The position numbers and the translations under genes were made by a program. The notes under the pieces are model-generated. The model did no database searches and was not told the origin of the DNA. It saw nothing but the letters and a program-made list of their open reading frames with translations. Shown here piece after piece: positions 150-12,882 of a stretch of 33,799 bases of DNA. Location of the stretch: positions 1-33,799 of the forward strand of contig CAZCPV010000003.1 of assembly GCA_964500765.1 (NCBI GenBank), in the 5' to 3' direction. The stretch's first letter is position 1. Each line of letters opens with the position of its first letter. The DNA comes from an uncultured Draconibacterium sp. GTDB taxonomy: Bacteria; Bacteroidota; Bacteroidia; Bacteroidales; JAADGE01.

Positions 150-521
150 TTAACTCTGCAACCATTTTTCGGCTTCTTTGAAATCGATAAAATATTGTAT
201 TTCCTGCGGTGTATCGGAAATATTTTCGGATTTTAAATTAATCCCTTTCATAATATTTGTATCCGAAACAATTAATGCACTTTTTTTTCGATTTACTTTT
301 CCTTTATTCTCTTTGAAAACATCAATCATATTTTGCAATTCTTTTGAATCAAAATTTTTATCACATAATCTGAAATCCGAAATCAAATTAAAATTTCTGT
401 TAAATTTTTTATGATGAAATTCATCATGTTTTAATTTTATGTATTCGTCTGTCGTAATATCCGAAGCTAATACTTCCGTTATTACTTTTTTATCTTCAAA
501 AATTTTAAAAGAACTTTTCAT
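150..521 (-). CDS. STAS/SEC14 (SpoIIAA-like) small protein, paralog 2
   Basis: 123-aa ORF with family-style motifs ISDFR, KSALIV and C-terminal F.DFKEAEKWL; collinear with the neighbouring 125-aa ORF. Confidence 0.7.
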   Translation of the reverse strand: MKSSFKIFEDKKVITEVLASDITTDEYIKLKHDEFHHKKFNRNFNLISDFRLCDKNFDSKELQNMIDVFKENKGKVNRKKSALIVSDTNIMKGINLKSENISDTPQEIQYFIDFKEAEKWLQS

Positions 522-547
522 ATTTTGAGTTTAAAATTAAAACAATT

Positions 548-925
548 TTACCATTTTTCTTTTATCCATTTCACAGTAGCACTCATTGAAGAAAAAACGC
601 TGATTTTTACGGGCAATTTACGAGCTTTTTGTCCGAAAAACAAGGAAGAGGCAACCAATTGCGGAGAATCTGCAACCACAGCACTTTTTCTGTTTTTCAT
701 TTTTCCCGAATTCATTTTCATAAAATCTATAATTTCTTCTATTAAATTCTCATTAAATACGTTATTAACTTCTCTTAAATCAGTTATTACATCATATTCC
801 GGATTAAAATCAATATCCGAAAATTCTGATAATTTTACTTTTTTATAATCTTCAAGACTTACTTTCTTCGGCCAAGTTTCGATAATAACTTTGTTTTTTG
901 TGTCTATTTTATAGCTTATTTCCAT
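548..925 (-). CDS. STAS/SEC14 (SpoIIAA-like) small protein, paralog 1
   Basis: 125-aa ORF with ITDLRE, RKSAVVA and C-terminal FSSMSATVKWI. Confidence 0.72.
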   Translation of the reverse strand: MEISYKIDTKNKVIIETWPKKVSLEDYKKVKLSEFSDIDFNPEYDVITDLREVNNVFNENLIEEIIDFMKMNSGKMKNRKSAVVADSPQLVASSLFFGQKARKLPVKISVFSSMSATVKWIKEKW

Positions 926-972
926 TGTCCTGCATAAAAGTCAAACCTTGATTGCATTATTTACCGAATACC

Positions 973-980
973 CAAATTTA
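973..980 (-). promoter_or_regulatory. Bacteroidota -7 promoter element (TAAATTTG) for the STAS-like pair
   Basis: Exact TAnnTTTG match on the minus strand ~47 nt upstream of the ATG at 925, just after the hox terminator. Confidence 0.55.
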
Positions 981-997
981 TATATTTTTTTTCATAT

Positions 998-1027
998 AAA
1001 AAAACCCGCAAAAAACTGCGGGCTTTT
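998..1027 (-). terminator. Rho-independent terminator of the hox operon
   Basis: CCCGCA/TGCGGG stem (1005-1022) followed on the minus strand by a 7-U tract (998-1004), ~25 nt past the hoxW stop. Confidence 0.75.
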
Positions 1028-1048
1028 AAAAAACAGACTAAAAAATAA

Positions 1049-1498
1049 TTATTTTGAAATTTCGGAAAAGCAATTAATTGCCGCCGATAAGTTTTTTTTT
1101 GCCGACCGGCTGATGCCTTCTTCCAATTCCCATTTGTATCCTTTTATTTTCAATATATATGCTTCGGGTTTTTTACCGTAAACACTTTCTGCCAAAGCCA
1201 AAATTGCTTCCGGCTCAAGGGCATGCGTGGTATAGGAAATTTTGCCGTCGGTTTTGCATTTTTCTATTTTATACCCTTCGGGCAAATCGTCTGCATAAGC
1301 ATCTGCAAACAGAACTTTCTCGGCATTTGCAACAAGTTCGGCATCTTCAATATTCAATTGATAACAATAATGCAATTGCCCCTTAAAACTTTCTTTTTTT
1401 TGAATTTCGTCAAGGAAAGCCCAACCCAAACCGTCATCTTGCCGAGCTGAGTTTCCTATTCCGAAAATTACGGTGTTTTTATGATTTAAATTTTTCAT
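1049..1498 (-). CDS. hoxW: Hydrogenase maturation endopeptidase (HoxW/HycI family)
   Basis: GIGNSARQDDGLG, FADA and TTH motifs; overlaps the 3' end of hoxH by 20 nt. Confidence 0.9.
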   Translation of the reverse strand: MKNLNHKNTVIFGIGNSARQDDGLGWAFLDEIQKKESFKGQLHYCYQLNIEDAELVANAEKVLFADAYADDLPEGYKIEKCKTDGKISYTTHALEPEAILALAESVYGKKPEAYILKIKGYKWELEEGISRSAKKNLSAAINCFSEISK

Positions 1499-2936
1499 CG
1501 ATTAATTCACCTTTATTATTAAGAATTGATAATTTCAAAGGCATTTTGCCCATAGCATGTGTGGCACAACTTAAACAAGGGTCGTAAGCTCTTATTGCCA
1601 CCTCCACTTGATTCAGCATACCTTCAGTAATTTCACCTTGCTTATCCAAAACATTTTGAGCAACCCAACCGACTGCCTTATTCATCGGATCGTTATTATG
1701 TGTTGTTGACACAATTAAATTACATTTTTCAATTTTCCCGGCATCATCCACTTTATAATGATGAATTAAAGTACCGCGCGGTGCTTCAATAACACCGATA
1801 CCTTCATTTCTTCTTACCCCTTCACGAACTAATTCATCACCCGTAATATCCTCATCGTGAAGCAGTTCTTTCATAACTTCTGCTGCATGCAAGGTTTCTA
1901 TTAATCGAGCCAAGTGCGTGTGCATAGTCATATTATTGGGTTTGCCGTTTGTGTATGCCGCAAATTCTTTACGTTCTTTTTCGGCAAGCGGTGTAGATAT
2001 TGAATCACAAACATTTAATCTGCCCAAGGGACCTACGCGGTTCCATCCGTTTTCTCTTCCGAGATGTTTGATATACGGAAATTTCAAATACGACCAACGT
2101 TCAACATCTTCATTAAAATATTTATGATATTGGAAATCCGGTATATCGTTAAGTGTAATATTTCCTTCATAGTCAAGGGCTCTTAATCTGCCGTCGTATA
2201 AATCCAAAGTTCCGGTTCCGTCTTTTGACACCAAACCGAGATGTCCCGAGGGGAAGGCGGCAAAAGTATCCAACCATGCAGCATGTTCTTTATGGTATCC
2301 TTTCATAAAATCGATTACTTCGGTACACCACTCAATCATGGTATCAACGGAAGGGATTTCTTTTCCGTCGAGGAAATAATCAATTTCGTTTCTGCGAAGA
2401 TTTTTATGAACACCTCCGGGAACTGCGGCAATACCGTGAATTTTTTTCCCGGCAGTTGCTTTAATCATTTCTTGCCCGAATTTACGCATCAAAATACCTT
2501 TTTTTGCCAATTCGGGATGTTCTTGTGCCACACCTACAACATTTCTGATTGCCGGATCGGCATCAACGCCAAAAAGCAAATCGGGAGCAGCAAGATAAAA
2601 GAAATGCAAAGCATGCGATTGAAAAACTTGCCCATAATGCAACAATTTTCTGATTTTTACAGCTGTCGGCGATAAATCTTCGGGGTTAATTCCCACTATT
2701 TGGTCAATAGCTTTTGCCGCCGCCAAATGATGACTTACGGGACAAATACCGCACAAACGCTGTACAACCAAAGGTGCTTGCCAATACGGATGCCCTTGTA
2801 TAAATTTTTCGAAACCGCGAAATTCCACAATATGAAATTTGGAATCGGTAACTTTTCCGTTATCGTCTATTTGAATGGTAACCTTTCCGTGTCCTTCGAC
2901 TCTTGTTACCGGATCTATTACTATTTTTTTACTCAT
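1479..2936 (-). CDS. hoxH: Group 3d [NiFe]-hydrogenase large subunit
   Basis: TRVEGH, L1 motif RLCGIC, EAPRG and L2 motif DPCLSCATH, followed by a 25-aa cleavable C-terminal extension. Confidence 0.96.
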   Translation of the reverse strand: MSKKIVIDPVTRVEGHGKVTIQIDDNGKVTDSKFHIVEFRGFEKFIQGHPYWQAPLVVQRLCGICPVSHHLAAAKAIDQIVGINPEDLSPTAVKIRKLLHYGQVFQSHALHFFYLAAPDLLFGVDADPAIRNVVGVAQEHPELAKKGILMRKFGQEMIKATAGKKIHGIAAVPGGVHKNLRRNEIDYFLDGKEIPSVDTMIEWCTEVIDFMKGYHKEHAAWLDTFAAFPSGHLGLVSKDGTGTLDLYDGRLRALDYEGNITLNDIPDFQYHKYFNEDVERWSYLKFPYIKHLGRENGWNRVGPLGRLNVCDSISTPLAEKERKEFAAYTNGKPNNMTMHTHLARLIETLHAAEVMKELLHDEDITGDELVREGVRRNEGIGVIEAPRGTLIHHYKVDDAGKIEKCNLIVSTTHNNDPMNKAVGWVAQNVLDKQGEITEGMLNQVEVAIRAYDPCLSCATHAMGKMPLKLSILNNKGELIDEKFKS

Positions 2937-3015: not shown

Positions 3016-4290
3016 TTAATCGTATTTGAATTCCTCGTAAGCAACTTTCTCTCCTGCACCGAATAAAATATTTTTAATTGCTTTCCAAATATGTTCGGCA
3101 TTAGGCGGACAACCCGGAATATAATAATCAATTTTTATAATGTCGCTTACGGCATATACTTTATCTAATAATTTAGGTATATCTTCATGATAGGGTATTA
3201 CATTTTCGCCGTTTTCGCTTGAAATTGAATTCAAATAGGCCTCTTCGAGGCAATCTTTCAGAGGTAATGTATTTCTCATCGCCGGCATACCGCCCCAAAT
3301 AGAACATTCGCCGAGAGCAACAACGATATTACATTTTTTTCGGAACTCTTTCAGTACTTCAAAATTTTCGGAATTGGCAACACCGCCTTCAATAATTCCT
3401 ATATCGCACTGTTTCGAGAATTTTTTAATATCGGTAAGCGGTGATTTGTTAAATTCTACAAGTTCAAGCACATCCAAAATACCCAAATCAATATCGAGCA
3501 AGGACATGTGACATCCGAAACATCCTGCCAGTGAGGTTGTTGCAACAATTTTCTTTTTTCCGTCTTTCGGAAGGTTTAAATCTAAATTTTCGGATTGTAT
3601 CCATTTAATATTTTTATCAACATCAAATTTACGGTCGCCGAAAGGTTTTGCACTGCATTTTCCTTTTGCAATTATTGCACCTACGGGGCAAAGTTTTGCT
3701 GCTTCAATCACTTGTTCATCCGTAAGTTCTTTGGCTTTTTCGTAGTCCATACCGACCAGCATATTATGCCCTCTGTTTTGAAAATAGAAAACATTTTCGC
3801 CTTTATTTGTTTTTACTTCATGGACACAGCGTTTACAAAGAATACAACGGTTATGTTCCAAGAAAATCCGGTCGTCTTTAAAATCTCTCGGGCGTTCTTC
3901 GAAAAGGTGCGGAAATCGTGATGATGAAATTCCCATTTCATACCCTTTACGTTGCAATTCGCAATCGCCGCTTTTTGCACATGCCGGGCAATAATGATTG
4001 CCTTCGGCAAACAGCATTTCCACAATGGCTTTTCTGTTATCCAAAACTTCGGCAGTATTAACTTCAACTTCCATTCCGTCAAAGACTTTACGCGTACATG
4101 CGGTATCCGGTTTACCGTTGATATTTACGGTACAAACGCGACAAGTTCCGAGCGGCGGATATATTTCTTTAAAATGACAAAGTGTAGGAATATAAAATCC
4201 GTGTTTTTTGGCTGCTTCGACTAATGATTGACCTTCAATTGCCTCAAACTTTTTGCCGTCTATTTTTATTGTTACAAGTTTTTGTTCCAT
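3016..4290 (-). CDS. hoxU-hoxY: Fused HoxU-HoxY (diaphorase Fe-S subunit plus hydrogenase small subunit)
   Basis: aa 1-223 are HoxU-like (IPTLC..GTCRVC..TAC; NHYCPAC..DC; RCILCKRC..CPVGA). aa 245-424 are HoxY-like (TSLAGCFGCH, EGG, GEC, PGCPP). Single uninterrupted ORF. Confidence 0.9.
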   Translation of the reverse strand: MEQKLVTIKIDGKKFEAIEGQSLVEAAKKHGFYIPTLCHFKEIYPPLGTCRVCTVNINGKPDTACTRKVFDGMEVEVNTAEVLDNRKAIVEMLFAEGNHYCPACAKSGDCELQRKGYEMGISSSRFPHLFEERPRDFKDDRIFLEHNRCILCKRCVHEVKTNKGENVFYFQNRGHNMLVGMDYEKAKELTDEQVIEAAKLCPVGAIIAKGKCSAKPFGDRKFDVDKNIKWIQSENLDLNLPKDGKKKIVATTSLAGCFGCHMSLLDIDLGILDVLELVEFNKSPLTDIKKFSKQCDIGIIEGGVANSENFEVLKEFRKKCNIVVALGECSIWGGMPAMRNTLPLKDCLEEAYLNSISSENGENVIPYHEDIPKLLDKVYAVSDIIKIDYYIPGCPPNAEHIWKAIKNILFGAGEKVAYEEFKYD

Positions 4291-4291
4291 T

Positions 4292-6013
4292 TTAATTATT
4301 TTTTACGTAATCATAATAATCATTTAAAGCTGCCGAAAGGTCGAATTTCTTTTCTTTTAAACCTTTTCCTTTAAACAGTTCGGGGAATTTATTAACAGCA
4401 TCGACAATAAAATTCGTCGAAGTTTTTCCCAATCCGCAGCGTGAAGTATCTCTCAACACTTTTGCCCAAGTTTTTATTTCTTCAATTTCATCAAAAGTTG
4501 CCTCTCCGTTTCTGATTCTTTCCAATCTTTTACCTATCAAATAGTTTCCTGCTCTGCAAGGAGTGCAAAGTCCGCAGGATTCGGCTATAAAAAAGTTTGA
4601 AAAATTAGTCAAAATATCAAAAACATCTCTTTTGGAGTTAAATATCATAACCGAACCGCCGCAAATTAAATCTTCACCGGAAATTGTTCTGTTAAAATCT
4701 TTTTCGGTTAAAACCGTTCCCGAAGGACCGCTGAATTGAATATAATTAACATCTTTTGCTTCGCAAAGATTCAACATTTCTTTTATAGTCATTCCCCACT
4801 CTATTTCATATATTCCGGGTTTTTTACAATCTCCCGAAATTGACAAAAGTTTTGTACCTTTTGTTTTAGGTGTTCCTTTTGTGCTGAAAATTTCACTTCC
4901 GAATTCCATTATTCGAGCCGCCGAACAAAATGTCTCTACATTGTTTACGACGGTCGGTTTTTCGAGATAACCCTTTTCAACGGGAAAAAATACTTTTGTT
5001 CGAGGACCGCCTCTTTTACCTTCAAGCGATTCGATTAATGAAGTTTCTTCACCGCAAACATAAGCACCGGCACCGGACATTACGGAAATATCAAAATCAA
5101 AATTCTTTCCGAGAATATTTTGACCGAGCAAGCCAATATCATAGAAATGATTGATAGTTTCCTGTAATTTCTTTTTCAAAAAACGGTATTCGGCTCTCAA
5201 ATAAATAATTCCTTTTGTTGCTCCTACGGCATATCCGCCGGTAATCATTCCTTCGAGTAATAATCCGGGGTATTGATTTAATAAAACTCGGTCTTTAAAG
5301 GTTCCGGGTTCGCCTTCATCGGCATTACAAAGCACGTATTTCTGCATACTTTGGCTTCGTTTAGCAAATTCCCACTTCATTCCCGTAGGAAAAAAGGCAC
5401 CGCCTCTGCCGGAAAGTCCGCTGTCTTTTATATCCTGAATAACTTCCGACGGTTTCTTTTTTACTAAATTCAAAATACCCTCTCCTGTTTTATATTCACG
5501 AAAAAGAACGGGTTCGCCTTTATCGTTTTTATATCTTATAAAATCGGGAATTTCATCTTTAATATCTTCAATATTTCCGCCTTTTTTTAAGTGGGAAACG
5601 ATGTCTTTAACTTTCTTAGGAGTAAGATTAATAAAAGGTATAAAATTAATTAATACCGCCGGTTCGTGTTCGCTTAATCCGATACAGGATGTTTCAAACA
5701 AACTGAAAGTTCCGGTAGGGTCGGTTTCTCCGAAAATCGTTTTTGTTTCTTTTTCAAATGCCTCTTTTACTTTTTTAACGCCTTTAATTTCGGAAATCAT
5801 ACTGTTATTTAGGTAAATCGTATATTTTCCGGTTGGTTTTCGTTTGAAAAAATGGTAAAAAGATATGACACCTTCGATTTCAATCCAAGAAATGCCGAGC
5901 TCTTTTGACAATTTTCGTATATCAGACGTGCTGATGTAACCGTTTTTGTCTTGAAATTCCCACAAATAATTTAATAATTGTGTTCTTTCGTTTCTGACTG
6001 CCGTGTAATCCAT
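4292..6013 (-). CDS. hoxF: Diaphorase flavoprotein subunit HoxF (NuoE-like plus NuoF-like domains)
   Basis: GRGGAFFPTG, NADEGEPGTFKDR, GAGAYVCGEE and [4Fe-4S] motif ESCGLCTPCR...CGLG; the N-terminal NuoE-like region lacks most [2Fe-2S] cysteines. Confidence 0.93.
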   Translation of the reverse strand: MDYTAVRNERTQLLNYLWEFQDKNGYISTSDIRKLSKELGISWIEIEGVISFYHFFKRKPTGKYTIYLNNSMISEIKGVKKVKEAFEKETKTIFGETDPTGTFSLFETSCIGLSEHEPAVLINFIPFINLTPKKVKDIVSHLKKGGNIEDIKDEIPDFIRYKNDKGEPVLFREYKTGEGILNLVKKKPSEVIQDIKDSGLSGRGGAFFPTGMKWEFAKRSQSMQKYVLCNADEGEPGTFKDRVLLNQYPGLLLEGMITGGYAVGATKGIIYLRAEYRFLKKKLQETINHFYDIGLLGQNILGKNFDFDISVMSGAGAYVCGEETSLIESLEGKRGGPRTKVFFPVEKGYLEKPTVVNNVETFCSAARIMEFGSEIFSTKGTPKTKGTKLLSISGDCKKPGIYEIEWGMTIKEMLNLCEAKDVNYIQFSGPSGTVLTEKDFNRTISGEDLICGGSVMIFNSKRDVFDILTNFSNFFIAESCGLCTPCRAGNYLIGKRLERIRNGEATFDEIEEIKTWAKVLRDTSRCGLGKTSTNFIVDAVNKFPELFKGKGLKEKKFDLSAALNDYYDYVKNN

Positions 6014-6271: not shown

Positions 6272-7339
6272 TTGAAAAAAATTCTTTTTAAAACAGGACT
6301 CTTTTTTAATTGGTTTTTCGCCGTTTTACTGATAATCTCGGATTTATCGGTTTTTATAAGTCCCGATTTTATTCCTTATTCGGGTTTACTCGGTTTATTC
6401 TTTCCTTTTCTTCTTATTGTCAATATTATTTTTTTGATTTTCAGAATTTTCGGTAAAAAAGTTTATTTTTTCATATCACTTATTGCCTTATTGTTAAGTT
6501 TTTACAGAATACAAGATTCGTATGCTTTCGGAAATAAAGAAGTTATCGGTGCACCGGTAAATTCGATAAAAATTATGTCGTATAATGTTCGTATGTTCGA
6601 CCTTTATAATTGGACGGGGCAGCATTCGGGCGAGGATATCTTCAATCTTATAAAAAATGAAAATGCCGATATTATTTGTCTTCAGGAATTTTATTCCCGC
6701 AAAGGATTTGATTTTCAAGATAAAATAATCAATGCTCAACATACAAAAAACTATTTGATTTCGTCAAAAGACAAAACGGGCTATTCGGGAAATGCTGTTT
6801 TCAGTAAGTATCCGATTGTTTCGAGCGGATTTGTCGATGTGGGCAGTTCCAAACAAAAATGTATTTATGCCGATATTGTGAAACAGAGAGATACATTCAG
6901 AATTTACGGAATTCATTTGGCATCAATTCATTTAAACAGTGATGATTACAAATTTATAAAAAATATTAACGAAAATAATAAAGATGAGAATATCGAAGGC
7001 GTAAAAGGTATCGGCTCAAAATTAGTGGATGCCTATAAGATAAGAGCTCAAGAAGTTGAAACATTGGTTCCGCATATTGAAGCATCGCCGTATCCGGTAA
7101 TTATTTGCGGGGATTTTAACGACACTCCGGTTTCGTACACCTACCGAAGCATACGAGGAAATTTGAAAGATGCTTTTACGGAAGCCGGTATCGGAATAGG
7201 GCATACCTATGCAAAAGGTTTGCCTCTATTCAGGATTGATTTTATTTTGCACGACAAAAAAATGACGGCAAAATCGTTTAAACGTATCAGAAAAGATTTT
7301 TCGGATCATTATCCGATATGTTCCGTAATTGAATTATAA
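6272..7339 (+). CDS. Membrane-anchored endonuclease/exonuclease/phosphatase (EEP) family protein
   Basis: Three N-terminal hydrophobic segments, then SYNV, DIICLQE, GDFND, RIDFI and SDHYP motifs; TTG start. Confidence 0.9.
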   Translation: MKKILFKTGLFFNWFFAVLLIISDLSVFISPDFIPYSGLLGLFFPFLLIVNIIFLIFRIFGKKVYFFISLIALLLSFYRIQDSYAFGNKEVIGAPVNSIKIMSYNVRMFDLYNWTGQHSGEDIFNLIKNENADIICLQEFYSRKGFDFQDKIINAQHTKNYLISSKDKTGYSGNAVFSKYPIVSSGFVDVGSSKQKCIYADIVKQRDTFRIYGIHLASIHLNSDDYKFIKNINENNKDENIEGVKGIGSKLVDAYKIRAQEVETLVPHIEASPYPVIICGDFNDTPVSYTYRSIRGNLKDAFTEAGIGIGHTYAKGLPLFRIDFILHDKKMTAKSFKRIRKDFSDHYPICSVIEL

Positions 7340-9140: not shown

Positions 9141-10385
9141 TTATTTAACAATTAAACCGTATTTTTCTGCTTTTAATGTATCTTTAAATCCGAAAACAAA
9201 GGCACGTTTCAAGTATTTTTCGCTTAAAGCGGAATTATTTTTTTGTTTTTCTCTTACCGAAGCAAAAAACCACATATCAGGATTTTCGGGTTCGAGATAT
9301 TCGTATATTTTTAAGTATTTATCGATATTTTTACTCCACGGATTTGTAATTTCTTTATTTACAAACGAATACATTGCAATTCCGAGATACGCTTTTGTGC
9401 GGGCATAACTTTCGGCTTCAAGGCGATTTTTCGATTTCATTAATTTAGTGACAGTAAGGATTTCACTATGCCAATAGCTTAATTTTTTACTGTTAAGATA
9501 CTGAATATAAAGATTATTCCTGTCAATTTCTTTTTGCAGAGATGCTTCGTATTGTTTCACAAACACTTTAAAATTTTTATCGTTCAAAAGTTTATTTAAT
9601 TTATTTTCGCTTTCGGGAATACCTGTTTTATAAGCAAGTTCATACTTTTTAAATGCTTTGAAATAATCTTTTTCTTTTAAAAATTTATCACCTTCTTTAA
9701 TAAAGTTTTGATTTAATGCAGATTGAATTCCGGTTTTTCCGAATAAAAAACGTATTGCCGTTAAAATATCATTTTCCGGAGGCCACTCGTGAATACCGTC
9801 AAAAACAAGCGTTAAAACATTTTTATTTTTCACGACTTCCGAAAAAGGAGAATAATATTGCTCGATAAAATTAAAATCTTTTGTTCCGACAATCATTGCC
9901 AAAGGAAAATCAAGCATCGAGATTTTTTGCATATTAATACCCGCCCCGCACATCAAAATCCCGTTTGTTTTATGCGAAAGGGCATATTGAAAAGCCATTC
10001 TTGCTCCGCCGGAAAATCCGGCAATATAAATTTGCTTCGACCTTAAATTCAACTTTCTTTTTGCCGAATATATGTCATTTTCAATATTTTGCATATAATC
10101 CGGCTGATTATTTTCAACATCGTTCAGCCCGATTAAAGTGCAATCGTAATTATCCGCAATTTTTTCAAATTTCGACAAAGCAAATTTTCCGTCGCCGTGC
10201 GGGTCGATAACAACAATTAATGTTTCTTTTGCTTTTTCTTTATTTTTGCTTTGCAAAACTTCAAAATTTCCCGAAGCGATTTCTGTTTTTTTTATCTTTT
10301 TTGTCTTTTCCGATTTAGAATTATCGTTTTCGGAGCTGCAACTTGCAACAATAAATAAAGCAAGAATTAAAAATACTTTTTTCAT
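9141..10385 (-). CDS. Alpha/beta-hydrolase lipoprotein with helical (TPR-like) C-terminal region
   Basis: Lipobox VASC; nucleophile elbow GFSGG; acid in GTKD; His in GIHEWP. Confidence 0.75.
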   Translation of the reverse strand: MKKVFLILALFIVASCSSENDNSKSEKTKKIKKTEIASGNFEVLQSKNKEKAKETLIVVIDPHGDGKFALSKFEKIADNYDCTLIGLNDVENNQPDYMQNIENDIYSAKRKLNLRSKQIYIAGFSGGARMAFQYALSHKTNGILMCGAGINMQKISMLDFPLAMIVGTKDFNFIEQYYSPFSEVVKNKNVLTLVFDGIHEWPPENDILTAIRFLFGKTGIQSALNQNFIKEGDKFLKEKDYFKAFKKYELAYKTGIPESENKLNKLLNDKNFKVFVKQYEASLQKEIDRNNLYIQYLNSKKLSYWHSEILTVTKLMKSKNRLEAESYARTKAYLGIAMYSFVNKEITNPWSKNIDKYLKIYEYLEPENPDMWFFASVREKQKNNSALSEKYLKRAFVFGFKDTLKAEKYGLIVK

Positions 10386-10389
10386 AAAT

Positions 10390-12882
10390 TTAATGTTTTC
10401 TTTTTTTTCTTCTTCTGAAAAACCAAATTAACGCAATAAAAAATAAGAGAATCGGTGCAAACACTTTTACGCTTGCCGCAAAATTAATATCATTGTTTAA
10501 TAAATCAGCATGTTCTTTATCGCTGTGCGGCGACATACCGAGCATATCGCCGGCAGAAGTTATTGCACGCATCGACAAATTACCGTCCGGAATGTCTTTA
10601 TGACAGGCAATACAAGTTCCGACTCTTTCCATGTGTTCTCGTTGTTCCTGCGATAAAGGTGCCGACAAATCCCAATGATGCCCCACGGTTTGAATTTGCT
10701 TACCGTCTCTTGTTACAACCTGCGACAAATCCATAGGCAAATCTTCAATTTTTGAAAACTGCGGTGTCGAACGATTACTGATATTTTCGCCTTGTGCATT
10801 CCTTAAATCGGCATATCTGTCTGTTTCATATCCTTTCATATATTTGCCGTCATTCACACCGTATCCCAAAGCTTTCGGGTCGGCATGGCACGACATACAC
10901 GAGCGGGCTTCTTTCGTTACCGTGTGCGGTTGTGCCGGCGACATATCCATTCCTCTTTGCCCTTCTTTTCCGCCGTTTTCGGTTCCGGGCGGTGTTCTCC
11001 AAATTTTATTTACAAAAACCGGCTTCCCGTCGGTTCCTATAACGGTTGTAATTTGCTGACATCCCGGAATAATCGGTGTTACTCTGCCTTCTCCGTTTAT
11101 GCCGAGTATCGGATTTTCCCACCGAGTATATGTTCTGCTCTCCGTAACTTTCCCTTTTAATTTTTTCATTTTTTCGCCTTCCTGTGTTTCTGAAGTTTCA
11201 CCGTTCGGAAAATGTGCTCCGCCGGTTTTCAGCCAATCGGTTGCTTCTGCTCCTTTACTGTAATCTACTTTTACATGACAACCGTAACATTGCGGTGCCC
11301 AAGTCGAATGGCAGGAGTAACATTCCATTTTGTCAATATGTTTGCCGATATTAACCATTGCCGTAACAGCTTTATCCGGATGTTCCCATGAATTTTCTTC
11401 CGTCATTTTTTTCAAAACCGGAACTTTAAAATCCAAACCCGATGCCGAATGAACAATTACCTCATCGCCTTTTCGAACGACATTGCCGTACGGATTTCCT
11501 CGTGCCGAAAGAATATATCCGTCTTCCTTCGGATAAACAGTCGAAAATTTACGAGTTACAATTAATAAGGTGTCGGATGTTCCTCTCGGCGTATCATTTA
11601 ATTTTGCCCCGAATTCATCACCGTATCCTATCGGCAATTCCCAAGGATATTTCTTCGGTGTACCGTGGCAATCGGCACATTCCGTTTCTACCGAAGCCAA
11701 TGTGGTACCGTCAATATTTCCGTTTCCGTGCATCGAAACGGTTGTATGGCAATCTTGGCACAACAAACCGCCCTTCGGATTCCCTTTTCTGCTTTTTACG
11801 CTGTGGTGTGCATCATCTTGTATAAAATGATAATATTTTCCGTGCAGTTTATACTGTTTGCTTCCGTCGGAATTAAAAGTCGTACCGTAGGGTTGTTCCA
11901 TTATTCCGAGATACGAAACACCTATTCGCTTACCCCTGTTATGACAAGTTGTACAAGTTTCGGAAGGTATTCCCGAATAACTTTTACCGTGTAATTTTAC
12001 CTTGGTTTTTCGTGAAGACTGAATAGAATGAACCAGAAGATGTCCCGGAACATCTTTCGGAATTGTCGGGTCGTTCCCTTCGTAAAATCCGACATCGCTG
12101 TACGGAATATGGCAAGCCGCACAACCTGTTCCTCTGTAATCGCCTCTTCTTTGTTTTCCTCTTACACCGACATGGCAACGCAAACATTCCGAACGCAAAT
12201 AGGTTAAAACACCTTGTTCGGGATGTTCATTAATTGTATTTACATCCGCATCCGGAAGTTGCTCCAGGTGATCGGGAAAATTACCGGGATATTTTTTTGC
12301 CAATTTGTGTATATAATTTTTATAAACATCGGTTCCCCATACAGGCATATTTCCGTCGGGGTCGTCTAAATCATAATTCCCGTATTTTGTTGCATAGCCC
12401 TCAAGTGTTGCACCCCAACCCCACAAAGCACCTTGTATTTTCCCTGCTTCCGTTTGCATTAAACTTCGTTTTTCGTTATAAACGTGTTCTTTATGACATT
12501 GTCCGCATGTTTTGTCCTTTACCCAAACCGAACCGGGATGTTTTATTAAATTTTTATGTGCAAGCTTTTTATTTTTAATTTGAGAAACATCTCCCTGATG
12601 ACAAACGACACAACCGTTCGGATCTCCGAGCTTTGCACCTTTTGCATAAATTTGTCTCATCATTTCGGAATTATGATCTCGTATAGGTGCAATCCCTTTG
12701 TGGCAAGTTAAACATCCTTTTTCGGATGCGGGAAAATCCGTCAAATTTTTTTTCGGTTCTTTTTTTATCGTCTTTTTATGTATTTTTTTATTTTTTACAA
12801 TTTTAGGCGGAGCCGAAGAAAATGCAGATATAATACTGATAATAAACACCAAACAGACGGAATACAAAATTATTTTTTTCAT
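10390..12882 (-). CDS. Large multiheme cytochrome c (12 CxxCH motifs) with C-terminal membrane anchor
   Basis: CLTCH, CVVCH, CGQCH, CLRCH, CAACH, CTTCH, CQDCH, CADCH, CYSCH, CYGCH, CMSCH, CIACH; N-terminal signal sequence; C-terminal hydrophobic helix plus RRRKKRKH. Confidence 0.92.
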   Translation of the reverse strand: MKKIILYSVCLVFIISIISAFSSAPPKIVKNKKIHKKTIKKEPKKNLTDFPASEKGCLTCHKGIAPIRDHNSEMMRQIYAKGAKLGDPNGCVVCHQGDVSQIKNKKLAHKNLIKHPGSVWVKDKTCGQCHKEHVYNEKRSLMQTEAGKIQGALWGWGATLEGYATKYGNYDLDDPDGNMPVWGTDVYKNYIHKLAKKYPGNFPDHLEQLPDADVNTINEHPEQGVLTYLRSECLRCHVGVRGKQRRGDYRGTGCAACHIPYSDVGFYEGNDPTIPKDVPGHLLVHSIQSSRKTKVKLHGKSYSGIPSETCTTCHNRGKRIGVSYLGIMEQPYGTTFNSDGSKQYKLHGKYYHFIQDDAHHSVKSRKGNPKGGLLCQDCHTTVSMHGNGNIDGTTLASVETECADCHGTPKKYPWELPIGYGDEFGAKLNDTPRGTSDTLLIVTRKFSTVYPKEDGYILSARGNPYGNVVRKGDEVIVHSASGLDFKVPVLKKMTEENSWEHPDKAVTAMVNIGKHIDKMECYSCHSTWAPQCYGCHVKVDYSKGAEATDWLKTGGAHFPNGETSETQEGEKMKKLKGKVTESRTYTRWENPILGINGEGRVTPIIPGCQQITTVIGTDGKPVFVNKIWRTPPGTENGGKEGQRGMDMSPAQPHTVTKEARSCMSCHADPKALGYGVNDGKYMKGYETDRYADLRNAQGENISNRSTPQFSKIEDLPMDLSQVVTRDGKQIQTVGHHWDLSAPLSQEQREHMERVGTCIACHKDIPDGNLSMRAITSAGDMLGMSPHSDKEHADLLNNDINFAASVKVFAPILLFFIALIWFFRRRKKRKH

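Follow-up and report, generated by a model that had tools for sequence, protein, structure and literature searches.

Can the diaphorase and hydrogenase parts of a soluble hydrogenase be carried by a single polypeptide chain? This question is raised by hoxUY, a gene on the minus strand of a 33,799-nucleotide stretch of DNA from an uncultured Draconibacterium sp. (contig CAZCPV010000003.1, positions 1 to 33,799; the whole stretch is referred to below as the window). In the available extracts of PMC3189943, soluble NAD-reducing hydrogenases appear as assemblies of two modules, HoxFU and HoxYH, that can be separated. A preliminary description of the window proposed that here a complete HoxU and a complete HoxY are joined in one open reading frame (ORF). 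The analysis presented below makes it likely that hoxUY is a genuine, selectively maintained fusion, one chain of which carries the whole iron–sulfur (Fe-S) relay from HoxF to HoxH in a soluble NAD(H)-linked hydrogenase of the group 3d type.

Domain Organization and Cluster Ligands of the Fused Protein

Domain searches and alignments bear out the presence of both complete subunits in the 424-amino-acid (aa) ORF. Pfam recognizes Fer2_4 (aa 4–79), NADH-G_4Fe-4S_3 (aa 86–125), and Fer4_Nqo3 (aa 142–206) in the HoxU-like part, and Oxidored_q6 (aa 257–407, E 4e-29) in the HoxY-like part. The top NCBIfam model for aa 5–220 is HoxU (NF005745, E 2e-51), with a score under the equivalog cut-off, which was set for stand-alone HoxU. 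Residues 7–223 align with residues 12–228 of the 242 residues of 5xf9_B (E 1e-37, 132.7 bits), and residues 246–424 align with residues 13–189 of the 189 residues of 5xf9_C (E 3e-46). These alignments cover almost the full length of each half and of the matching solved subunit, which is far beyond chance.

All of the cluster ligands that had been counted in the preliminary description, for one [2Fe-2S], two [4Fe-4S], and the proximal cluster, are present. The candidate [2Fe-2S] ligands of the HoxU-like part are C38, C50, C53, and C65, those of a His-ligated [4Fe-4S] cluster are H99, C101, C104, and C110, and those of a second [4Fe-4S] cluster are C149, C152, C155, and C201. The HoxY-like part has four cysteines (C257, C260, C329, and C394) for the proximal [4Fe-4S] cluster only. 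The domain limits and the conservation were computed; the residues were assigned to particular clusters by homology. In a MAFFT alignment of 180 fused sequences, no sequence departs from these residues at any of the 16 positions; one of the 180 is cut off before C394. Three further cysteines in the Y part of P0001 (C295, C320, and C347) lie outside the four proximal-cluster ligands and are invariant in an alignment of 32 sequences.

The two parts are connected by a linker of 21 aa, which had been described correctly as containing neither a stop codon nor an in-frame ATG. The linker DNA contains no in-frame GTG or TTG codons and no GGAGG-like ribosome-binding (Shine–Dalgarno, SD) site either, and an internal start for a separate HoxY was rejected for this reason. 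Both the sequence and the length of the linker vary among the fused relatives. The stretch from the FD to the ATxSLAGC motif, measured in the 109 of 121 sequences that match this pattern, is 22–29 aa long (median 24), with 23% Lys and no Cys.

Structure Comparison

An AlphaFold2 (AF2) model of the hoxUY product was built from an alignment of 79 rows, with distant fused and split forms among them; its predicted local distance difference test score (pLDDT) is 86.3 and its predicted template modeling score (pTM) is 0.84. It replaced a model built from a 32-row alignment, which was discarded as too poor. According to Foldseek, the Y half corresponds to 5xf9_C with a template modeling (TM) score of 0.92, a root-mean-square deviation of 1.9 Å, and 44% identity; for the U half, the match is 5xf9_B, with a TM score of 0.81 and 34% identity. 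In the model, the folds of the U and Y halves are equivalent to those of the separate subunits and appear unchanged by the fusion. The junction is predicted to be disordered: the mean pLDDT is 50–53 in 10-residue blocks over aa 211–240, and no secondary structure is seen from aa 209 to 246.

In the H. thermoluteolus (Hydrogenophilus thermoluteolus) structure, the tail of HoxU (14 residues) and the head of HoxY (12 residues) remain unaligned, giving 26 residues, and the hoxUY protein has 22 residues between the aligned blocks. Judging from the extended length, a tether of 22–29 residues should be able to bridge the HoxU C-terminus and the HoxY N-terminus. No single chain covering both the U and the Y halves was found in the PDB by sequence or by Foldseek.

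Distribution of the Fused Form

The 120 best protein relatives, drawn from a collection of 5.8 billion proteins, are 57–93% identical to the query, and all 120 contain both PF13510 and PF01058. Most of them (116) are 420–446 aa long, and the four shorter proteins (397–404 aa) cover 93–95% of the query. Thus, the search for other proteins of about 420 aa with both domains, which the preliminary description had suggested, returned many. At the nucleotide level, 79 loci were obtained from the best 80 of 587 confirmed tblastn matches (a scan with one genome per species). Junction-spanning ORFs, 59 in number, are present in 57 of these loci, two Winogradskyella loci having two each, and the remaining 22 loci contain separate hoxU and hoxY genes. 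The close homologues are therefore by no means all split, which had been named as an observation that would speak against the fusion. Far from being rare, the fusion is the norm in a large clade, of which the window is one member.

According to the record titles, the fused loci belong to Flavobacteriaceae, Chitinophagaceae, Saprospiraceae, Haliscomenobacteraceae, Cyclobacteriaceae, Hymenobacteraceae, and Balneolaceae. They also include an independent metagenome-assembled genome (MAG) labelled Chlorobiota (L001), which is 92% identical to the window, and three MAGs labelled Pseudomonadota. Named cultured strains account for eight of the fused loci: Lutimonas halocynthiae, two Winogradskyella, Ginsengibacter hankyongi, two Lutibacter, Botryobacter ruber, and Pontibacter ruber. 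The three Pseudomonadota-labelled operons are found in MAGs labelled Gammaproteobacteria, Alteromonas, and Lysobacterales (L037, L038, and L053). L037 and L053 nest within the Bacteroidota part of the HoxH tree described below, and L038 is too truncated to be placed; this points to horizontal transfer or mis-binning.

Split Relatives and the Origin of the Fusion

The 22 split loci (L057–L065 and L067–L079), the nearest relatives in which the genes are not fused, encode proteins 48–53% identical to the window protein and have the same gene order, hoxF-U-Y-H-W. They are derived from Bacteroidales, Marinilabiliales, Lentimicrobiaceae, Spirochaetia, Ca. Saccharicenans, Lentisphaerae, and one Cytophagales MAG. 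In these operons, the break falls exactly at the position of the linker: the U protein matches the query up to residues 223–225, and the Y protein matches it from residues 242–246. The hoxU stop codon is TAA in 18 loci, TAG in three, and TGA in one. The hoxY ATG follows 3–24 nucleotides (nt) after it, often with a GGAGG-like site between them. Selenocysteine incorporation or readthrough at these stops was considered and set aside, as most of them (18 of 22) are TAA and an ATG comes after every one.

In 22 of the 22 split loci, the hoxU stop (at about locus position 6640–6720) is in frame with hoxY, whereas one third would be expected by chance. This excess may be an ascertainment effect, since tblastn runs through in-frame stops and such loci therefore rank higher. 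If the in-frame arrangement is real, one base change interconverts the split and fused forms. In the split loci that match the pattern (21 of 22), the FD-to-ATxSLAGC stretch, with the stop included, spans 20–26 codon positions, and in the 31 fused junctions that match it, 23–29. As these spans are comparable, the fused linker can be understood as the split junction translated without a break, from the HoxU tail across the stop and the spacer to the HoxY head. Judging from these sequences, the loss of one stop codon would be a sufficient mechanism for the fusion. The direction of the change was probably from split to fused, given that all characterized and more distant relatives are split.

A maximum-likelihood tree of HoxH was built from 74 rows, with the loci whose hoxH is truncated or broken left out. 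In this tree, the fused or split label changes a single time: the 52 fused rows are located on one side of a branch with a support of 100 in the Shimodaira–Hasegawa-like approximate likelihood ratio test (SH-aLRT), and the split relatives are on the other side. On this tree, the fusion in this clade has one origin.

Outside the clade, the picture is more complex. Among the best 150 representatives of 50%-identity clusters, 19 contain both parts, and many are fragments. The full-length, distant fused U-Y proteins P0126, P0127, P0128, and P0131, which are 32–38% identical to the query, carry the domains in the same order on a single chain of 410–455 aa; on separate trees of the U and Y columns, they fall among split HoxU and HoxY sequences. 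A single clade of all fused forms was rejected by the approximately unbiased (AU) test (p-AU of 1.9e-4 for Y and 8.5e-44 for U). Consequently, the fused architecture was gained, or lost, several times.

Gene Neighborhood

The gene hoxUY is the second of four co-directional genes in the order hoxF-hoxUY-hoxH-hoxW (Table 1). The hoxF stop lies 1 nt ahead of the hoxUY ATG, a spacer of 79 nt separates hoxUY from hoxH, and hoxW shares 20 nt with the end of hoxH. Almost all related loci that are long enough to show hoxW have it after hoxH.

Table 1. Features of the hox operon in the window.
Feature	Part of protein	Position	Strand	Description
hoxUY		3016..4290	(-)	ATG-started ORF, 424 aa and stop, no internal stop
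HoxU-like part	aa 1–223	3622..4290	(-)	Pfam domains, 5xf9_B alignment and Foldseek, ligand conservation
Linker	aa 224–244	3559..3621	(-)	VDKNIKWIQSENLDLNLPKDG, 21 aa; variable, Lys-rich, predicted disordered
HoxY-like part	aa 245–424	3019..3558	(-)	Hydrogenase small subunit; Oxidored_q6, 5xf9_C alignment
hoxF		4292..6013	(-)	573 aa; diaphorase flavoprotein, NuoE-like thioredoxin-fold domain, NuoF-like FMN/NADH (flavin mononucleotide/NADH) domain, and [4Fe-4S] domain
hoxH		1479..2936	(-)	485 aa; [NiFe] large subunit; Pfam NiFeSe_Hases
hoxW		1049..1498	(-)	149 aa; hydrogenase maturation endopeptidase; TIGR00072 58.2 bits, cut-off 47.45

The HoxF protein matches the Pfam domains 2Fe-2S_thioredx (7–143), Complex1_51K (195–364), and NADH_4Fe-4S (466–548) and the NCBIfam model nuoF_fam (E 5e-112). 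Besides these NuoE-like, NuoF, and NADH_4Fe-4S domains, Pfam detected nothing in HoxF, and an extra ferredoxin domain in particular was not detected. The NuoE-like domain (aa 1–143; window 5590–6013, minus strand) has a single Cys in the region where four Cys serve as [2Fe-2S] ligands in NuoE; judging from its residues, the HoxF domain probably binds no cluster.

HoxH contains the motifs RLCGICPVSHH and DPCLSCATH, which we take to be the N-terminal RxCGxCxxxH and the C-terminal DPCxxCxxH Ni-Fe binding motifs, and has a C-terminal extension of 25 aa. When compared with solved structures, to which the subgroup comparison of HoxH was confined, it scores best with 5xf9_D (529.6 bits, E 6e-158), and the scores are lower with bifurcating HydL (468.6 bits), MvhA (406), and FrhA and sulfhydrogenase (at most 118). 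Together with the neighboring hoxF and hoxW, this similarity supports the proposal of the preliminary description that the HoxU-HoxY chain belongs to a three-gene F/UY/H enzyme, which would be of the NAD-linked group 3d type.

The remainder of the window contains housekeeping genes, a multihaem cytochrome, and transporters. The cytochrome (830 aa; window 9141–12882, minus strand) has cytochrome c7/c3 and MtrC/MtrF-like domains and is followed by a 414-aa ORF without a Pfam match. Downstream of hoxW (window 150–925, minus strand), a 125-aa ORF has no family match, and a 123-aa ORF has a weak SpoIIAA-like match under the cut-off; the 79 loci contain no BLAST match to either at E ≤ 1e-10. The numbers of promoter-like sites (19, with 17.8 expected) and of terminator-like sites (9, with 5.4 expected) found in a scan did not differ from those in shuffled sequence.

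Some of the fused loci differ from the window in the composition of the operon. In Winogradskyella sp. A2 (L017 4170–12400) and W. alexanderae (L047 2316–10600), the order is hoxF-hoxUY-hoxF-hoxUY-hoxH-hoxW, with two F and UY pairs per hoxH and 59% identity between the two UY copies. One catalytic subunit may there be shared by two alternative electron-transfer modules. In Lutibacter sp. TH_r2 (L036 2241–5990) and L. citreus (L042 2211–5990), two full-length tandem hoxF genes precede a single hoxUY-hoxH-hoxW. A second, much more divergent Hox-like set adjoins the fused operon in L006 (3–3450) and L010 (2–3450), both on the minus strand, and in L052 (346–2800). This set has separate U (about 245 aa) and Y (about 185–205 aa) genes; in L006 and L010, its F subunit of 552 aa matches the NuoF part only, and the second HoxH of L052 forms a very long branch (4.86).

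In five Flavobacteriaceae loci (L002, L008, L011, L019, and L030; about 635–2400, minus strand), an ORF of 403–584 aa is located upstream of hoxF on the opposite strand. It matches only the first ~129 residues of HoxH and probably encodes the large subunit of a [NiFe]-hydrogenase from another group. Three genes are each broken into two ORFs, namely hoxH in L015 (7248–8700), hoxF in L010 (4239–5990), and hoxW in L008 (8700–9150). They are either pseudogenes or the result of assembly errors.

Alternative Explanations

The split relatives differ from the window by as little as one in-frame stop, and a single base error could mimic the fusion. However, the probability that the open frame is an artefact of assembly or sequencing, with a stop or an indel missed between separate hoxU and hoxY genes, is negligible. 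The same fusion is present in 57 independent loci, including those of the eight named cultured strains, and in 120 of 120 best protein clusters, and the independent MAG L001 is also fused. Moreover, the window linker has neither an SD site nor a start codon, whereas hoxY starts with an ATG in all 22 split loci and a GGAGG-like site is present in several. An assembly artefact is thus excluded by the family-wide conservation of the fusion. It is also very unlikely that the fusion exists at the gene level only and that the mature enzyme is a four-chain HoxFUYH, either because the Lys-rich linker is cut after translation or because HoxY is made from an internal start. A linker that is predicted to be disordered and contains 23% Lys would be accessible to proteases, and the operon encodes the protease HoxW, whose known target is the C-terminus of HoxH. 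Against this, the linker has no in-frame start codon or SD site, its sequence is not conserved and so offers no obvious recognition site, and a fusion that arose more than once is easier to explain if the tether is tolerated or useful. A third explanation, that the enzyme is something other than a plain NAD+-reducing hydrogenase and uses NADP or ferredoxin or bifurcates electrons as NiFe-HydABCSL does, seems unlikely. The U part does score slightly higher with bifurcating HydA (7t2r_A, 148.3 bits) than with 5xf9_B, HydS and MvhG are likewise good matches of the Y part, and the top NCBIfam model for HoxH is VhuA. However, the closest match of both HoxH and the Y part is the NAD-reducing enzyme of H. 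thermoluteolus, the U part ends at aa 223 without the long C-terminal part of the 692-aa HydA, and Pfam detects no extra ferredoxin domain in HoxF, whose NuoE-like domain is without most of the usual Cys. In the available part of PMC8880783, HoxU is described as the truncated HydA of a non-bifurcating enzyme.

Several points weigh against the reading of hoxUY as a maintained fusion in an NAD-linked enzyme. The assignment to group 3d rests on similarity and gene content and should be taken as a prediction, the NCBIfam scores for HoxU, VhuA, and NuoF all being under the equivalog cut-offs. No hyp maturation genes are present within the window. The proportion of 57 in 79 loci is no frequency, as the best-of-587 tblastn ranking favors close, single-frame relatives. 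The HoxH tree is the product of a quick search with SH-aLRT support only, and its root, placed on the midpoint and one very long branch (L052_H887), is not established. The earlier AF2 model, built from a shallow 32-row alignment of close relatives, was poor (pLDDT 67.3, pTM 0.45). Finally, a single mature UY chain is predicted from the gene.

Proposed Mechanism

The following scheme for the fused enzyme is modeled on the homologous enzymes of H. thermoluteolus and C. necator (Cupriavidus necator). The product of hoxUY would be a single chain of ~47 kDa (estimated from its length), and the enzyme would consist of three chains, HoxF, HoxUY, and HoxH, matured by HoxW, in place of F, U, Y, and H. 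H2 would be split at the Ni-Fe site of HoxH, and the Y part would receive the electrons through its proximal [4Fe-4S] cluster and hand them on to the two [4Fe-4S] clusters of the U part, with the [2Fe-2S] cluster alongside. They would finally reach the [4Fe-4S] cluster and FMN of HoxF, where NAD+ would be reduced; the reverse reaction would be possible as well. A flexible, Lys-rich tether of 21–29 residues would take the place of the HoxU C-terminal tail, the stop codon, the short spacer, and the first HoxY residues. Most likely, the hoxU stop codon was lost in an ancestor with adjacent in-frame hoxU and hoxY, and the fusion may then have spread through the mostly aerobic Bacteroidota, Balneolota, and a Chlorobiota-labelled lineage.

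The main fused clade comprises Flavobacteriaceae, Chitinophagaceae, Saprospiraceae, Cyclobacteriaceae, and Balneolaceae. These lineages are largely aerobic, and the split sister clade is found in anaerobes. A further idea, which we consider possible but rather doubtful, is that the UY tether is adaptive, was gained several times, and locks the diaphorase and hydrogenase modules against dissociation, the F-UY pairs of Winogradskyella being interchangeable modules that compete for one HoxH. If this is true, the fused enzymes are naturally stabilized three-chain soluble hydrogenases and ready scaffolds for H2-driven cofactor recycling.

Significance

A search of open-access papers and bioRxiv (full text, supplements excluded) found no description of a natural HoxU-HoxY fusion. 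In that literature, "fused" and "fusion" refer to engineered tags, fusions of photosystem I (PSI) with hydrogenase, other proteins, and fused-silica columns only, and "HoxUY", in the text excerpts available, denotes the HoxUYH sub-complex or serves as operon shorthand. The preliminary description, too, knew of no biochemical account of such a fusion, which agrees with this search and with the lack of a PDB chain containing both halves. The parts and the chemistry are known; the covalent organization is undescribed yet widespread. In public databases, the proteins are labelled "2Fe-2S iron-sulfur cluster-binding protein", "diaphorase moiety small subunit", or "F420-reducing hydrogenase gamma subunit/ferredoxin". 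With such generic labels, Hox hydrogenases of Bacteroidota may be miscounted by pipelines that expect hoxU and hoxY as two genes.

Soluble NAD-reducing hydrogenases attract research as a means of H2-driven NADH regeneration; here, a large natural clade joins the HoxFU and HoxYH modules via a single U-Y chain. This clade offers a ready test of whether tethering alters stability, assembly, or behavior towards O2, and cultured source organisms exist. The gene also provides a worked example of gene fusion by the loss of a single stop codon, with the split and fused states both extant. Stabilization of the complex, an effect on the order of HoxH maturation, and a use in biocatalysis can be named as consequences of the fusion by way of speculation.

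Comparison with Known Systems

Most features of group 3d hydrogenases can be recognized in the operon. HoxH has the Ni-Fe motifs and among solved structures is closest to 5xf9_D, the HoxY-like part is short with the proximal [4Fe-4S] cluster only, and the HoxU-like part resembles the N-terminal part of NuoG with three predicted clusters; a NuoF-like HoxF with FMN/NADH and [4Fe-4S] domains is encoded in the same operon. The feature that differs is the presence of separate HoxU and HoxY chains, which form separable FU and YH modules in group 3d enzymes, whereas hoxUY is a single ORF. This departure concerns the subunit organization, not the catalytic parts.

Bifurcation in NiFe-HydABCSL needs extra Fe-S domains. 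The Acetomicrobium mobile NiFe-HydABCSL (PDB 7T2R/7T30) resembles the system described here in its NuoG-type N-terminal domain (148.3 bits), short small subunit (143.2 bits), and large subunit (468.6 bits). However, it consists of five separate subunits with a 692-aa HydA (7t2r_A), and neither is present here: the operon encodes no full-length HydA of ~690 aa and no HydB with additional Fe-S domains, which an electron-bifurcating enzyme of this type requires.

The C. necator (Ralstonia eutropha) H16 enzyme, HoxFUYHI2, is an NAD-linked enzyme of two modules. According to the extracts of PMC3189943, its HoxFU carries FMN, one [2Fe-2S], and three [4Fe-4S] clusters and can be produced and purified without HoxYH. 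These cofactors agree with the ligands found here in HoxF and the U part. Unlike in C. necator, no hoxI-like gene was recognized in the window, where neither of the two ORFs that follow hoxW matches a family above the cut-off. With a fused UY chain, the separation of HoxFU from HoxYH known from C. necator would be impossible.

The NAD+-reducing HoxFUYH of H. thermoluteolus (PDB 5XF9/5XFA) has the same four functional parts as the hoxUY enzyme, a flavoprotein of the HoxF type, and the same set of cluster ligands. In H. thermoluteolus, HoxU (242 aa) and HoxY (189 aa) are separate proteins, whereas here they form one chain of 424 aa, in which a 21-aa linker stands in place of ~26 unaligned terminal residues.

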